DNA of 14,403 nt, taken from the UHGV virus genome UHGV-0123060, one strand, 5' to 3'. This stretch comes from a virus. The notes beneath the pieces are model-generated. The model saw only the letters and a list, made by a program, of their open reading frames with translations, was not told where the DNA came from and searched no databases. This document shows, piece after piece, positions 9,479 through 14,312 of this stretch (position 1 is its first letter; each line of letters starts with the position of its first letter). The position numbers and the translations under genes were made by a program.

Positions 9479-10796
9479 TCTCGATATCCTCGTCGGTAAT
9501 GGATGCTCCGATACCAGTGACGTCAGAGTTTTCGCGCAGGTCGGTCATTGCCGCCTTACGCGTCATCAATCCGTCGCCCAGCGCGGTGCTGATCGCGGTG
9601 GTGGTGTTTACGGCCACCGTTGAGCGGTCAACGTCAGACATTTGCCATAGCGGGTTAAACTCAAACGTGAAATCGTCCGGCAGCGGCTTGCCGAGTTCAG
9701 AGCGGTGCATAATGTCCAGTATCCGGCGCATCGGCAGCCGTAAGCGTCGCTCCTGCAATGAACTCACCCGGTCGTAATAGTTGGCGAGGTCAGCATCACC
9801 AGTAGAGAAGCCTTTCGGGGATTGACCGAACAGGCGTACCAGCGGGATGCCGACGGCACCGCTGATCTGCTCAGCGAACTGCGAAAGAATGTCATCCAGA
9901 CCGCTGAAGCTGTACTGGTGGGTTTCGAAGGTATCCTTGGCATCCATTAGCGTCATGCCTTCATTGCTCTGAAACTGGCGAATCAGATCAATGTTTTTCA
10001 GCAGCGCCTCGAATGCCGGGCCTCCCAGCGCAATAAGCTCACGAAGTTTTTCCACCTTGTAGGTCCGCAGATGCGCTTTGTAGACCAGCTGCGCCGCGCC
10101 GACAGTGGCGCTGTCGAACGCAGTAAGCCGATCCCAGATACGCTCTACAACCGACATTCCCCATTCGTTTTCGGTCATCTTCTGCTGGAATGGCAGCGTG
10201 ACGCCATCGAAGCGAATCAGGCGGCTGTGATGGATGCGCCAAGACGGGATGCCCGTAGCAGTGGTCACCACGTCGTAAAACTCAGGTTTGCCGAGATCCG
10301 GCCCCATCTCTTTAATGCGGCGGGTCAGCACCGGATTAATCATCCAGCGGTCGAGCGGGAGAATTCCCTTAAACTTGCCTTCTCCAATGGTTTCGAGCCG
10401 CAGCGGGGTCATTGGTGCCTGCCCCTCAATCATGATGAAGCCAACCGCGCCGCCGTAGAGACGCGACCATTTCAGCACGTCGTTCAGCGCATCCCAGATC
10501 TGCAACTCATCCAGCTGCGCTTCCAGGGTGCCACGGTCTTTGGCGTCAATCTCCGAAGTGATGCGAATGCCTTTCCGGGTCATATCGTCCGGGATAGCGT
10601 CGACCGCTTCGCCGATAACCCACGATCCGCGATATGACCATTCCACCAGCATGCGGTTGCGGCTGGTGAAGTTCGCCCGGTAGGTCGATGCTGAGTGCTG
10701 GTTAGGCGTCTGCATCCCCACGCGGGCGACAAAGTTCTCATAGCCATCAGCGGTGGCCTGCGCCGTTCGCTGAGAGGCTTGCTTGTTTCGTGCCAT
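9327..10796 (-). CDS. Portal protein, putative
   Basis: 489-aa ORF whose ATG (10796-10794) overlaps the terminase stop (TGATG). Size and position between large terminase and Mu-F-like gene; acidic Pro/Gly-rich disordered C-terminal tail. Confidence 0.7.
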   Translation of the reverse strand: MARNKQASQRTAQATADGYENFVARVGMQTPNQHSASTYRANFTSRNRMLVEWSYRGSWVIGEAVDAIPDDMTRKGIRITSEIDAKDRGTLEAQLDELQIWDALNDVLKWSRLYGGAVGFIMIEGQAPMTPLRLETIGEGKFKGILPLDRWMINPVLTRRIKEMGPDLGKPEFYDVVTTATGIPSWRIHHSRLIRFDGVTLPFQQKMTENEWGMSVVERIWDRLTAFDSATVGAAQLVYKAHLRTYKVEKLRELIALGGPAFEALLKNIDLIRQFQSNEGMTLMDAKDTFETHQYSFSGLDDILSQFAEQISGAVGIPLVRLFGQSPKGFSTGDADLANYYDRVSSLQERRLRLPMRRILDIMHRSELGKPLPDDFTFEFNPLWQMSDVDRSTVAVNTTTAISTALGDGLMTRKAAMTDLRENSDVTGIGASITDEDIENAEDEAPPGIGELGDKPPESPGGDPISNEPTADSAGGRGYRKWALRWFKR

Positions 10797-12418
10797 CAGG
10801 CCTGTCTCCCTAGCAGCTCCCAGATGTTCAGGGCTGAATTCATTGGCGCGTAGCTGATCATCACCGAGTCGGCGAGGTTCGGCGACTTGGTGCCGTCAGG
10901 CTGTTTATCAACAACGATTTTCCCCACGCCGTTAATGGAGTAGGTCGGCTGCGACAGCTCGATGATGAGTTTGTCTTTGTTCGCCATAGTGCCACTGATT
11001 GAGATGATTTCGTCCGGGTTGTAAGCCATCTTTTCAACCACGGCACGATAGGTGTTCTGGAAAAGCTTGCGTAACCGCCACCAGCTCTGGGCCTTGGCGT
11101 TAGCGAAAAAGTCCTTATTCAGGCGGGCGGCCTGTCCGTTGTCGCCGCGCACCGCTTCATCGTCCGGATCAAACACCGCGCCGCTACCGCGAAACGGTGT
11201 GGCGAGTATTGACGGTCGGCGCGCAGCGTTGCGCAGTTCGTTGATGGCGCGCGCATCGCCGCGAACGCCAGCGCCCAGGCCGTCCTCGTCGAAGCGAAAC
11301 TCTTCGAGGTTGTCCTGTTCGCAAAAGCCGAAGACCTTCTCAACAGATTGGTAAATGTCGCTGCCCACGCCGGACCATTCCCGCACGTTCTCCAGGAGGA
11401 AACCGTGACGGGTCGAAAAGGCATTTTTGTCCCGGCCTTCGTCGGCGACGTCCATCGCGCCCAGTCGCTTGCCCGTTGGCTGAATACCAAGTTTGATATG
11501 CGCGTCGACGGCAGCCTGTACCCAGTCGGACGGGATCAGGACGCCTTCCGCAGATGCGCTGTAGTTCAGGTCAAGTTCCTGCGCCACCACCACCGGATTG
11601 TCGATTTTCTCGCACTCCCTGCGATACCACTCTTCATCCTTGCGCGGGTCATCTCGCCAGTGGAACGTGAATACTGGTATCTTTCCGCCGTGGCGCTTCT
11701 GCGCGAACGGGTTCGCCATGCCATTAACCGAGCTCAGGTCAATACGGCAACGGGTGGTTTGCGACAGCGCCGCGTCAATCAGCAGAGGACGCTGGAGGAA
11801 TGCAGCCTCATCCACCAGGTAGAGGGTGGTACGGTCACCACGACCGATATTGTCGCCAGCCTCGCCTTTGATGACCGCGCCAGTATCGGGAAACTCAACG
11901 CGCATGTATGGCGCGTGCTTCTTCTCGTCCCACGAACCGCGAAACTCGACGGGCAGCGTTTCCACGAACTTGCGCGCCTTCCAGAACAGCGCCTTCGGGT
12001 CTCCGGTGCTGTCGACGTATTCCTCTTTACGGGAGCCGAAGCCGATGACCATTTCTTTGTTGAAGAGGCAGAGCGAACAGGCCAGCCCGATCGCCGTCCA
12101 GCTGAGCCCCATTTCGCGGCTCTTTTCGGTGATGCCGTTCTCCAGTCGTTCGCGCCGCTCCATGATCCAGTGAATCCACTCTTCCTGTTTCGGGAACAGC
12201 AGAAAAGGGATGGTGACCGGCAGGCCATAATCGATGTTACGCGGGTCAGTAGTCATCCCCCAGTCGATGATGAACTGTGCCGGGTTGGTGCGGTAAAACT
12301 GCTTTAGCGCTGGCAGCATTTCAGGGTTCTGGCGAATGCGCTGTAAGCGCTCCATCCGCCATTCAAAAACCATCTGGTAATCAGGGTTTCTGAAATCGAA
12401 TTCAAACGGAAGAGGCAT
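10796..12418 (-). CDS. Terminase large subunit
   Basis: About 541 aa; P-loop-like [12 protein letters not shown] and Walker-B-like [11 protein letters not shown] in the N-terminal ATPase part, acidic nuclease-type C-terminal half. ORF track start 12424 is a GTG overlapping the upstream stop; ATG at 12418 preceded by GGGTGA is the more likely start. Confidence 0.85.
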
Positions 12419-12420
12419 GA

Positions 12421-12894
12421 TCACCCCATCATCTTGCGGTAAATCTCTGCGGCCTGATCTGCGGTGAGGTTGGTCGTCTCGGTCTTGATCGGGCCGCCAT
12501 CCTTGCCAGTGCTCTCAACCTTCAGCTTATTGGTGTATGCATCGCCAACCTCTTTCGCGGCCTGCTCAATGAGCTGCGCCGTCAGGGAGAAGTTTTTCAT
12601 CCCCTCGGTTTTGGTTGCCATACGGTCAAGCACGCGGAGGCGATAGGATTTGTTCGCAATCGGAATGTCGCTGGTTTCGGTCAGGAATCGGTCGCGCGTC
12701 GCGTGGAACATCTCGATCCATTTTTTGGCGAGCGTCTTACCGCTGGCCTTCGTGGGGTCGTGAGATTCAGCCTGCTGGCGGGTGATCTTGATCCCGAATT
12801 CTTTTTGGACAGCCTCGACCACCTGCGATGGCGTGTCATAGCACGCAAGCGACTGAATGATGAAGGCTTTCACATCAGGTTTTAATGCAGCCAT
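12421..12894 (-). CDS. Terminase small subunit, putative
   Basis: 157-aa ORF immediately upstream of and coupled to the large terminase; SD GGATGGTGA before the ATG at 12894. Called by position and size. Confidence 0.55.
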
Positions 12895-12925: not shown

Positions 12926-13546
12926 TTAAGCCAGTCGCAGCATGCACGTCCCGCACGCTCTGGCAATATCGAGATGAGCAACCTCCGCTGGCTGATTCGC
13001 CGCATCAATCATTTCCTGCACGTCCCGGCTTGCACCGTAACGGCGAACCACGCCCACAAACTCTTCCACGTCATGACCGCGCAGCTTCAGCTTTGGCTGC
13101 CCTTCCTGCGTGAACTTCGGCGCGCCAAATTCATCTGTCGCCTGGCAGATGTGATAAAGCTCGTGCTCTATCAGCGCGCAGAATTCCAGATCGGAACATT
13201 GCGAGCAGTAATCGGCGGCCAGCGTGATGATGAACTGCGGCACCCTGCCGAACCACTCATACATCTGCTGCTCCATCCGCGCTTTCTGCCAGCCTCCAGC
13301 CCGCATTGCCACTTCTTCCGCCTGCCCCAGCACGGAACGCCCTTTCTTCTCGAAAGCGTTCGACGCCCAGAGAAAGCACAGATCCGCTTCAAGCAAATGC
13401 TGGTGATCAGGGTTGTAGAGGTCACCCTCATCGCTCAGGATGTGCTGATTCAGCCACTCGCCAACGTCATTAGCGGGCATAATGCTGATGTACGGCTTCG
13501 GGTCAGGTGGCATCGTAAAATGCGCTGGTGGGTGTGGTCTGTTCAT
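12926..13546 (-). CDS. Hypothetical Cys/His-rich protein with HExxH motif (candidate zinc metalloprotein/metallopeptidase)
   Basis: 206-aa ORF, ATG at 13546. Contains YCSQCSDLEFCALIEHELYHICQ (CxxC, C, HExxH, C) plus a C-terminal ACGTC; Pro-rich N-terminus. Sits between the lysis cassette and terminase genes. Confidence 0.6.
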   Translation of the reverse strand: MNRPHPPAHFTMPPDPKPYISIMPANDVGEWLNQHILSDEGDLYNPDHQHLLEADLCFLWASNAFEKKGRSVLGQAEEVAMRAGGWQKARMEQQMYEWFGRVPQFIITLAADYCSQCSDLEFCALIEHELYHICQATDEFGAPKFTQEGQPKLKLRGHDVEEFVGVVRRYGASRDVQEMIDAANQPAEVAHLDIARACGTCMLRLA

Positions 13547-13622
13547 GAATAATTCCAGTGCTCCATTATCAAGCCCACCAGCAGATGGGCTTTGTAATGG
13601 AAAGCCGTTGTGAAAGTGGCTC

Positions 13623-13643
13623 TAAAAAACCACAGATTTGTGG
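13623..13643 (-). terminator. Candidate intrinsic terminator (weak): CCACA-AAUC-UGUGG followed by U6 on the minus strand
   Basis: 5-bp stem (extendable by flanking A-U pairs) immediately after the 33-codon ORF stop, followed by six U (plus-strand A-run 13624-13629). Confidence 0.45.
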
Positions 13644-13745
13644 TTATGCGGCCAAGCGGTGCTGCTCTTCGATAAGTGGCTGGCGGTGATTACGCTCGAA
13701 CATGCCGCGCAGCACTTCTTTGCGTTGTTCGAAGTCCCACCCCAT
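13644..13745 (-). CDS. Very short ORF (33 aa) between two terminator hairpins; coding status uncertain
   Basis: ATG at 13745, stop TAA 13646-13644; product MGWDFEQRKEVLRGMFERNHRQPLIEEQHRLAA; no clear SD. Could be non-coding transcribed spacer. Confidence 0.2.
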   Translation of the reverse strand: MGWDFEQRKEVLRGMFERNHRQPLIEEQHRLAA

Positions 13746-13794
13746 GCTGATGAATACCGTGTTGGCGCGCTGTAGCTCGGTGAAATTCGGGCAT

Positions 13795-13818
13795 AAAAAA
13801 GCCCGACCGAAGTCAGGC
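13795..13818 (-). terminator. Intrinsic (rho-independent) terminator after Rz/Rz1
   Basis: Minus-strand RNA GCCUGAC-UUCG-GUCGGGC (7-bp stem including one G-U pair, UUCG tetraloop) followed directly by UUUUUU, starting 20 nt after the Rz stop. Confidence 0.7.
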
Positions 13819-13838
13819 TCTGTTATTTGGGTGACGAA

Positions 13839-14312
13839 TCACTTAAGACACTGCTCTTTGATGTAGTCCTGCATGCCGCGAATCATTTTGTCAGCGGTTG
13901 CGATTCCGTCCCGGTGATCGAAATAATTCCGTCGAGCGTCTGGAGTAAGTTCGGGGGCTCCTGCATCATCCACGCCGGTGGAGGAGGTGGCTTTTGGCAC
14001 TCCAGGGCAGGTTGCAGCGATGCGCAGCCGTTTAGCGCCAGAATCGACATCACGACGCAAATCGTTAATGGTCTTTTTAGCATCAGCCAGTTCTCCGGTG
14101 TATTTGGCATCCAGTGCAGCGACATCACGCTGGCGGGTCTGCATGTCTTTAATGGTGGCGGTCGCCAGGAGGAGTTTCTCAGTGGCCTTATCGCGCTGGT
14201 CTCTGTAAGTGATGGCGTTGTCGCGGTAGTGGTTCACGAAGAAAGCCAGTGCGCCGATTAACGCCAGCACCAGCAACTGCAGCCAGTAACGCTTAACCAG
14301 TGCGCTAATCAT
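13839..14312 (-). CDS. Rz: Rz inner-membrane spanin (i-spanin)
   Basis: 157 aa; N-terminal TM segment ([15 protein letters not shown]) then [10 protein letters not shown] ... [19 protein letters not shown], matching the lambda Rz core from memory; coiled-coil periplasmic domain. ATG at 14312 overlaps the upstream stop (ATGA). Confidence 0.9.
13883..14083 (-). CDS. Rz1: Rz1 outer-membrane spanin (o-spanin) lipoprotein, embedded in Rz in the +1 frame
   Basis: Entirely inside the Rz ORF in another frame. Signal peptide [19 protein letters not shown] followed by Cys (lipobox-like LNGC), then [16 protein letters not shown] and DGIIS, matching lambda Rz1 as I recall it. Start placed at the Met preceding the signal peptide; track ORF extends to 14128. 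Confidence 0.85.

Follow-up and report, generated by a model that had tools for sequence, protein, structure and literature searches.

The late operon of lambdoid phages has one promoter and is read by an RNA polymerase that Q has modified to be resistant to termination. Some genes of such operons are known as morons, a concept that reportedly goes back to Juhala and Hendrix. In P22-like phages, rho-independent terminators inside the late operon have been recognised, notably in the analysis of phage L, and the roles proposed for them are to stop transcription that is not antiterminated or to attenuate it partially (PMC8022706). Deletions between short direct repeats have also been documented in P22-like phages (PMC5630979). 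A last point of comparison is the Gifsy-1 prophage, in which IsrJ ends the antQ-isrK-orf45-anrP-isrJ unit and is located at the 3′ end of anrP (PMC4825925).

The window analysed here is a stretch of 14,403 nt of the virus genome UHGV-0123060 (metagenome contig ERZ783827 NODE_21), at the end of which all the genes, and both the hairpins reported in an initial annotation of this DNA, lie on the minus strand. The last gene of the lysis cassette is Rz (i-spanin, 13839-14312, 157 aa; Pfam PF03245 Phage_lysis, E 1.4e-39), whose DNA has 98-99% identity to genes annotated as 'lysis protein' in Klebsiella phage Chronis and in E. coli prophages. Rz1 (o-spanin, 13883-14128, probable start at 14083) is contained within it in the +1 frame and has a LNGC lipobox. 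A spacer of 292 nt (13547-13838) separates Rz from the gene of a putative phage metallopeptidase (12926-13546; Pfam PF18894), so called from the RefSeq annotation of the homologous prophage of E. coli ABWA45, and this gene is followed by a DUF2280 small-terminase-like gene (12421-12894; Pfam PF10045), by the terminase large subunit (10796-12424, 542 aa) and then by the portal and the head genes, the position of the portal being read from the relatives. The placement of the segment between the lysis and the packaging modules, proposed in the initial annotation, is therefore supported by both the Pfam domains and the relatives. Beyond the two hairpins already reported (hairpins 1 and 2), the spacer contains two more, one small (about 13622-13602) and one strong (hairpin 3, 13600-13563). 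We consider it highly probable that the segment between hairpins 1 and 2 is the scar of a deleted rha gene, and that the hairpins are the ordinary flanks of the intact gene rather than parts of a new small gene or RNA.

Hairpin 1 begins 18 nt past the Rz stop codon (13841-13839). Its core, GCCUGAC-UUCG-GUCGGGC (13818-13801, minus strand), has a stem of 7 bp, which reaches 10 bp when extended (13821-13798), and is followed by U6 (13800-13795). With the three extra pairs, the minimum free energy was -15.2 kcal/mol (z = -4.5) and none of 200 shuffled sequences equalled it, hence the strong, terminator-like hairpin with a UUCG loop and U6 which had been described after Rz/Rz1 is indeed there. It has a G+C-rich stem-loop and an immediate U-run, and it lies on the sense strand past a stop codon, as required of an intrinsic terminator; on these grounds it looks like a genuine predicted terminator, at which transcription would end. 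A terminator behind Rz is a general feature. Hairpin 1 accompanies Rz at 99% identity up to position 13786 in E. coli prophages, several of which share its exact sequence, as do Chronis and the relatives L012, L016 and MDK9L1. Other Rz alleles carry a different stem (GCCUCG...GCGGGGC) with the same GGGCUUUUUUAU tail (-10.8 kcal/mol in Oslo and SPN9CC, -14.1 kcal/mol in L009). Since the stem was replaced and both the structure and the tail were kept, a conserved function of hairpin 1 is supported. A consensus terminator scan found 12 terminator-like sites in the window against 15.3 expected, thus no excess, and listed neither hairpin 1 nor hairpin 2. Judging from the rule of the scan, this omission is probably due to the fact that both stems extend into the T-runs, so that the tail window of 8 nt is left with only 4 T against the 5 required, and we did not count it against the two hairpins.

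The initial annotation had a 33-codon ORF filling the gap between hairpins 1 and 2 exactly. This holds at one end, in that the stop codon of the ORF (13745-13644, minus strand) abuts and overlaps hairpin 2, but not at the other, the ATG being 49 nt downstream of the hairpin 1 U-run. Upstream, the reading frame stays open as far as the Rz stop, for 65 codons in all, and the ATG corresponds to an internal Met of a longer coding remnant. Precisely, when compared by BLAST with phage records, the region resolved into three mosaic pieces. The first (14000-13788) corresponds to Rz and its terminator in Klebsiella phage Chronis, with 98% identity. The second (13783-13563) corresponds to the 3′ end of genes annotated as Rha-family regulators, with an identity of 97.7% in the case of Salmonella phage Oslo and of 88-89% in that of SPN9CC-type P22-like phages, and the third (13599-13400) matches metallopeptidase genes. 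The Oslo match consists of the last 140 nt of a 229-codon rha and of 81 nt downstream from it. The ORF ends at the stop codon of rha, and the 45 C-terminal residues are identical to those of Oslo, so that the translation of the frame (TELQRANTVFISMGWDFEQRKEVLRGMFERNHRQPLIEEQHRLAA) is the C-terminus of Oslo Rha. The region 13644-13781 (minus strand) is thus the 3′ stub of a Rha-family regulator gene, made of its last 45 codons and the stop codon. In the intact Oslo homologue, residues 13-100 make up the Phage_pRha domain (PF09669; E 1.3e-18). No Pfam domain was found in the 64 aa of the open frame in the window, and the stub, in which the N-terminal domain is absent, is tied to the Rha family by the homology of the remaining sequence, as a fragment and not as a member gene. 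When the 45-aa stub was used in a protein word search, only five proteins were retrieved, all of them short or partial and none a full-length Rha, a result which says little on the size of the family.

The intact gene was found by a look-up of contigs that encode an identical metallopeptidase. One of them, L012 (CP056737.1), is an enterobacterial chromosome of 5.09 Mb with the order Rz - hairpin 1 - rha (228 aa, PF09669) - hairpin 2 - metallopeptidase - DUF2280 - terminase - portal, and with a gene for a Q-type antiterminator upstream of the holin. The stub is 100% identical at the DNA level to codons 184-228 of this rha (97.7% to the Oslo rha 3′ end), and the identity of 100% extends over the whole of window positions 13783-12900, corresponding to L012 2764-3647. 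On the other side, the Rz of L012 is a different allele (89% identical), and the stretch from hairpin 1 to ATGCCCGAATTTCACCG is again identical to the window. L012 has two copies of the motif TCACCG, at 2075 and 2764, hence 689 bp apart, the first 20 nt after the hairpin 1 U-run and the second in rha codons 183-184; both sit in an imperfect 19-nt repeat in which 13 of the 19 positions match. The window has a single remaining copy, at 13778-13783 (minus strand), which marks the deletion junction, and the 689 bp that it lacks with respect to L012 comprise the region upstream of rha, the Phage_pRha domain and codons 1-182. A crude scan of the L012 sense strand from Rz to rha gave no sigma-70 consensus match.

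We therefore propose the following history from the comparison of the two sequences. The ancestor prophage would have had Rz/Rz1, hairpin 1, about 200 nt, rha (228 codons), hairpin 2, the small hairpin, hairpin 3, the metallopeptidase and the terminase, in this order. A deletion of 689 bp between the two TCACCG copies would then have taken out the rha upstream region and codons 1-182, so that the codons for the 45 C-terminal residues came to lie, together with the stop codon and the 3′ hairpins of the original gene, directly behind the Rz terminator. The small peptide gene, leader or dedicated non-coding RNA suggested in the initial annotation is accordingly replaced by the 3′ stub of a deleted Rha-family gene, which has kept the stop codon and the downstream hairpin of the intact one. 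Read in this way, the locus is a clean natural example of a deletion mediated by a 6-bp microhomology (TCACCG), in which cargo was lost and the flanking RNA structures were spared.

Hairpin 2 (13645-13624, minus strand; stem-loop 13645-13628, T-run 13629-13624) has the sequence AACCACA-AAUC-UGUGGUU followed by T6, a stem of 7 bp with 3 G-C pairs, and it overlaps the ORF stop codon (13646-13644). Its free energy was between -6.1 (centroid) and -7.8 kcal/mol, with z = -2.3 and 6 of 200 shuffles equalling it. The second, weaker hairpin with U6 reported on the same strand is thus present, and the free-energy calculation that had been recommended for both the hairpins gives a strong hairpin 1 and a weak hairpin 2. 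Hairpin 2 is identical in L012, where rha is intact. In close alleles its U-run is not conserved, the window and L012 both having T6, Oslo T5, L181, L182 and L187 T4, and L183 and L186 T3. At the corresponding position, SPN9CC has no significant hairpin (z -0.26) and no U-run. We concluded that hairpin 2, inherited from the rha 3′ flank, is a weak passenger that would contribute little to termination.

We then weighed the rha scar against other readings of the segment. According to one of these, which we regard as improbable, the segment between the hairpins is a small non-coding RNA of about 170 nt, with the 3′ end at hairpin 2 and the 5′ end produced by processing or by a re-start after hairpin 1, acting in trans or in cis on the packaging genes. 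In favour of such an RNA, the spacer of 292 nt has a far better fold than its shuffles (z -4.8), but the good fold is owed to hairpins 1 and 3, and the ORF segment alone is not unusual (z -1.1). The Gifsy-1 prophage does have sRNAs derived from 3′ ends (PMC4825925), and hairpin 1 together with the Rz 3′ end matched isrJ (RF01393), an Hfq-binding sRNA family of Rfam, with 27.2 bits and E 0.003-0.009; this score is below the gathering score of 37, and the Gifsy-1 IsrJ follows anrP, not Rz. The isrJ match was gone when five related loci were searched together (no match at E < = 0.1), and a BLAST search with the Rz 3′ end and hairpin 1 retrieved no Gifsy-like phage. Given the sub-threshold score and the different context in Gifsy-1, we rejected hairpin 1 as a member of IsrJ. 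Against a dedicated RNA there are also the weakness of hairpin 2, its variable U-run, the fact that in the relatives an intact gene has this segment as part of its ordinary coding sequence, and the result of the consensus scan, in which no promoter-like site was found on the minus strand within 13547-13838.

The scar itself is rare. The junction 21-mer (ATGCCCGAATTTCACCGAGCT) had zero exact matches in 2.9 M viral contigs and in the representatives of 185,579 species, and by BLAST no phage record or complete E. coli genome covered > = 80% of the region. The junction was found in three metagenome contigs only, i.e., the window, L018 (ERZ783353), which comes from a second sample and is identical in sequence to the window, and L181 (OKVJ01002621.1), which has 92.4% identity to the window over 974 nt. 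In L181, the stretch from the Rz stop to the ATG is unchanged, 5 changes fall in hairpin 2 and the spacer (among them the shortening of the U-run to U4), and all 4 substitutions in the 33 codons are synonymous (AAT>AAC, CAC>CAT, CGC>CGT, TTG>CTG). For a single diverged copy, the probability of 4 synonymous changes out of 4 in an unconstrained sequence would be about 0.002 if all changes are considered and 0.011 if only transitions are.

This pattern is what a selected peptide would show, the frame being intact in all 3 copies, and it bears on a reading that we hold to be very unlikely, in which the ORF of 33 or 45 codons is a functional mini-protein, a C-terminal module of Rha (e.g. dominant-negative or partner-binding) translated from the late transcript. 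The 3′ end of the L181 type, with the same hairpin 2 variant, also occurs in intact full-length rha genes of 228 aa (L182, L183, L184 and L187). As the synonymous variants are all present in these intact alleles, the polymorphisms were shaped in the 228-codon gene and are no evidence for a 33-aa peptide. For the same reason, a dN/dS-type test was dropped as a sign of coding constraint in the ORF. The conservation test that the initial annotation had called for thus gave a frame that is kept, with only synonymous changes in the sole diverged copy, but it does not discriminate between a peptide and a remnant of the intact gene. In the same scan of 3′ ends, L186 proved to have a frameshifted rha, another decaying copy.

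Orphan ORFs of the Rha C-terminus have been called at the same genomic position in other prophages (P0003, 58 aa; P0004, 75 aa), which speaks for this reading, but they have other break points and resemble separate truncations or frameshifts. Moreover, the window copy is 100% identical to the intact gene, which leaves no time for visible selection on the stub, the stub allele is very rare, no promoter was found for it, and the ORF has neither a ribosome-binding site (no Shine-Dalgarno sequence upstream of its ATG, CACGGUAUUCAUCAGC-AUG) nor the stand-alone conservation expected of a small protein or leader. The ORF has no promoter or ribosome-binding site of its own and very probably does not give rise to a protein. 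One UGA separates the stub from Rz, which is in the same frame, and a read-through product of the two via this single codon would be formally possible. The presence of the junction in two backgrounds indicates either that the scar persisted and recombined or that it arose twice. Similarly, the L181 variants may have entered the stub by recombination, within the first 90 nt that are identical, or may have come with an independent deletion at the same microhomology. Persistence of the scar could be a hint of some use.

That the ORF is a leader peptide, and the hairpins a translation-coupled attenuator of the metallopeptidase and terminase genes, is hardly credible in our opinion. A short ORF does terminate within the stem of a hairpin bearing a U-run, but this geometry is that of the 3′ end of full-length rha, the folds show no evident alternative antiterminator pairing, the peptide has no regulatory codon run, and the sequence in the slot is entirely different in relatives with identical downstream genes. 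Finally, an assembly artefact of a metagenome contig, conceivable from the modest coverage of the window (cov_6.2), is effectively refuted, since three assemblies independent of each other have the junction and one of these has diverged by 7.6%.

Besides the rha scar, the spacer contains an element which is found well beyond this locus. Hairpin 3 (13600-13563, minus strand; 38 nt, CCAUUACAAAG-stem-CUUGAUAAUGG) closes the 3′ side of the variable slot that follows the lysis genes. It has a free energy of -22.8 kcal/mol (z -5.3) and belongs to a family of 36-38 nt in which the flanks CAUU(A/C)CAAAG and CUUGAUAAUG enclose a covarying stem of 6-9 bp. The flanks were fixed by the search patterns, so that their invariance is not independent evidence. 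Each of two pattern scans gave at least 120 matches, and across the loci examined there were at least 171 instances and at least 58 variants, compensatory changes included. At the six variable stem positions we counted 255 Watson-Crick pairs, 86 G-U, 0 A-C and 7 other combinations; since G-U pairs are present and A-C pairs are not, the structure holds on the sense strand only, which fits an RNA. Among 46 distinct 36-mers, 96.7% of the cells pair, against 90.5% after shuffling (with none of 500 shuffles as high) and 29-47% after sliding of the partners, and in five pairs there are changes on both sides.

Hairpin 3 lies behind at least 29 unrelated clusters of upstream ORFs. For instance, it comes after a 66-aa gene in E. 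coli ABWA45, after kilA and an ORF in the Stx2c phage 2851, after gene 65 in Sf6 and straight after Rz in phage L. In about 94 of 143 distinct contexts, the stop codon of the upstream gene on the same strand is 1-9 nt before the hairpin. Hairpin 3 always has the orientation of the sense strand and a place between the lysis and the packaging genes. Each of 146 phage records, those of HK022, HK620, Sf6, ST64T, L, ES18 and Stx2 phages among them, has a single copy, and the hairpin is also present in 1,349 of 5,426 complete E. coli genomes (about 25%); the DLP12 prophage of E. coli K-12 lacks it. No U-run is located behind it. It is not among the annotated terminators in the record of phage L, it matched no Rfam family, and its sequence string gave no match in the searchable literature. 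In the record of Sf6 it is not one of the 'boundary sequences' of Clark et al., bsq7 being placed there inside Rz and not at the hairpin.

We tentatively suggest, as a possibility on which we would not insist, that hairpin 3 is an undescribed RNA element of lambdoid late operons and that the stub itself is inert. Such an element may serve as a signal for processing or stability, or for an unconventional termination, in the late transcript, and it may be a conserved joint for the exchange of accessory cargo. Our best guess is a 3′-end, processing or stability signal that doubles as a recombination joint. If this were true, stubs would survive since the deletions that remove hairpin 3 are selected against. 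Hairpin 3 is widespread and unannotated, and it is perhaps the only part of the locus worth experiments.

The slot between the lysis genes and hairpin 3 holds different cargo in the relatives. In E. coli ABWA45 it contains a 66-aa and a 123-aa gene, and the same Rz and terminator followed by the 66-aa gene also occur in L016 and L017; in other relatives there is a rha of 172, 195 or 228 aa, and elsewhere a 61-aa ORF. The metallopeptidase of the window is preceded in some relatives by a rha of 172 or 228 aa and in others by the 61-aa ORF. Relatives sharing either the Rz terminator or the metallopeptidase thus differ in what lies between the two, which is one of the features expected of a moron, a transcription unit of its own that has entered a phage operon. 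The window ends inside the lysis cassette, and a Q-type antiterminator gene is located upstream of the lysis genes in close relatives. Late transcription would start from a late promoter far upstream and would be made resistant to termination by a Q-type antiterminator. Polymerase modified in this way would pass hairpins 1, 2 and 3 and reach the packaging and head genes, and unmodified polymerase leaving the lysis region would halt mainly at hairpin 1. The proposal in the initial annotation that the structural genes lie behind terminators which need antiterminated read-through is thus plausible, in view of the terminator-like hairpin 1 and of the Q-type antiterminators of the relatives. Read-through of this kind, well established in lambdoid phages, is the expected route to the expression of the structural genes.

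Taken as a whole, the stub locus is ordinary, i.e., a deleted member of a known gene family in a known kind of accessory slot. It carries a lesson for annotation, in that short ORFs framed by hairpins in the accessory slots of phages can be gene stubs. Synonymous-only variation in these ORFs may come from intact alleles and does not imply a functional peptide.

With respect to the described systems, there is some likeness to the IsrJ of Salmonella Gifsy-1. Both combine a terminator hairpin with the last 45 nt or so of a prophage gene, and there is some resemblance between UCGUCACCCAAAUAA and UCGUCgaCCAAACAAAU, but the match here is at the 3′ end of Rz and not of anrP, and its score is under the threshold. 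The intra-late-operon terminators of P22-like phages (PMC8022706) are of the same kind as those considered here, namely canonical hairpins with a U-run within a single operon whose promoter is Q-dependent; in our locus they are predicted. The morons and accessory slots of lambdoid late operons (PMC3594210), among them the 'ant moron' (PMC2629481), likewise have unrelated genes between hairpins and syntenic flanks. They differ from our locus in that the cargo here is largely deleted, and the consensus scan found no promoter of its own for the intact rha of L012. Close counterparts are the rha genes in the post-lysis slot of P22-like and lambdoid phages, e.g. those of Oslo (gp76) and SPN9CC (SPN9CC_0045). 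The stub shares with this family of genes the position, the strand, the 45 C-terminal residues, the stop codon and a 3′ flank bearing hairpins. Compared with them, it retains codons 184-228 only, the Phage_pRha domain and the 5′ region being gone, and is hence a fragment of the gene that these phages carry whole.

The variable slot that follows the lysis genes is closed off by hairpin 3 (13563-13600, minus strand), a conserved stem-loop of 36-38 nt with a predicted free energy of -22.8 kcal/mol, in which the stem is flanked by CCAUUACAAAG and CUUGAUAAUGG, and after which a U-run is absent. Covariation in the stem was strong on the sense strand only, with 255 Watson-Crick, 86 G-U and 0 A-C pairs, and 96.7% of cells were observed to pair, compared with 90.5% in shuffles. 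We found hairpin 3 in 146 phage records, including HK022, Sf6, L, ES18 and the Stx2 phages, as a single copy per phage, and in 1,349 of the 5,426 E. coli genomes, its usual position being 1-9 nt past a stop codon. The element carries neither an annotation nor an Rfam family, and a literature search by its sequence returned no paper.

An AUG within the 3' arm of hairpin 3 starts a mini-ORF of 7 codons, read from the sequence as AUG GAG CAC UGG AAU UAU UCA UGA (13543-13566, minus strand), the stop of which overlaps the start of the downstream metallopeptidase gene (AUGA). Tiny ORFs begin at the same AUG in other contexts, e.g. MDIRLSG in a locus with an rha 3' end (L182) and MDIPLSG in the E. 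coli prophage ABWA45. The peptide is not conserved: its His is replaced by Leu in L181, a diverged metagenome contig with the same deletion junction.

Other prophages were also found to carry the Rha C-terminal region as orphan ORFs, at the position that the stub, i.e. the 3' remnant of the deleted rha gene, has in the window. Precisely, a 58-aa ORF (L192, 2501-2677) and the last part of a KilA-N gene overlap in different frames, and a 75-aa ORF (L194, 1548-1775) lies between Rz and the terminase in a Proteus prophage; these two cases suggest that the conserved 3' part of Rha-type genes is a frequent break or joining point. In a further locus with an rha 3' end (L186), the rha allele (~1021-1420 on the reverse-complemented locus) has its N-terminal part out of frame and just 133 codons are open, with a normal C-terminus at the end; this allele is a further copy in independent decay.

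The stub and Rz share one reading frame, which is open for 65 codons (13644-13838, minus strand) immediately past the single Rz UGA. Read-through of this UGA, if any, would add 64 residues to Rz; the shared frame is probably due to chance.

On the plus strand, hairpin 1 (13795-13821), the terminator-like stem-loop after Rz, is followed by UCUGUUAUUUGGG, with 7 U among the first 10 nt, so that it could also halt antisense transcription entering the lysis genes. On the minus strand, the Rz 3' end and hairpin 1 together (13797-13867) gave a sub-threshold Rfam match to isrJ, the Hfq-binding sRNA of Gifsy-1, scoring 27.2 bits, below the gathering score of 37. The spacer motif UCGUCACCCAAAUAA is similar to the IsrJ consensus and is present again behind Rz in phage L, as UUCGUCAACCAAAG.
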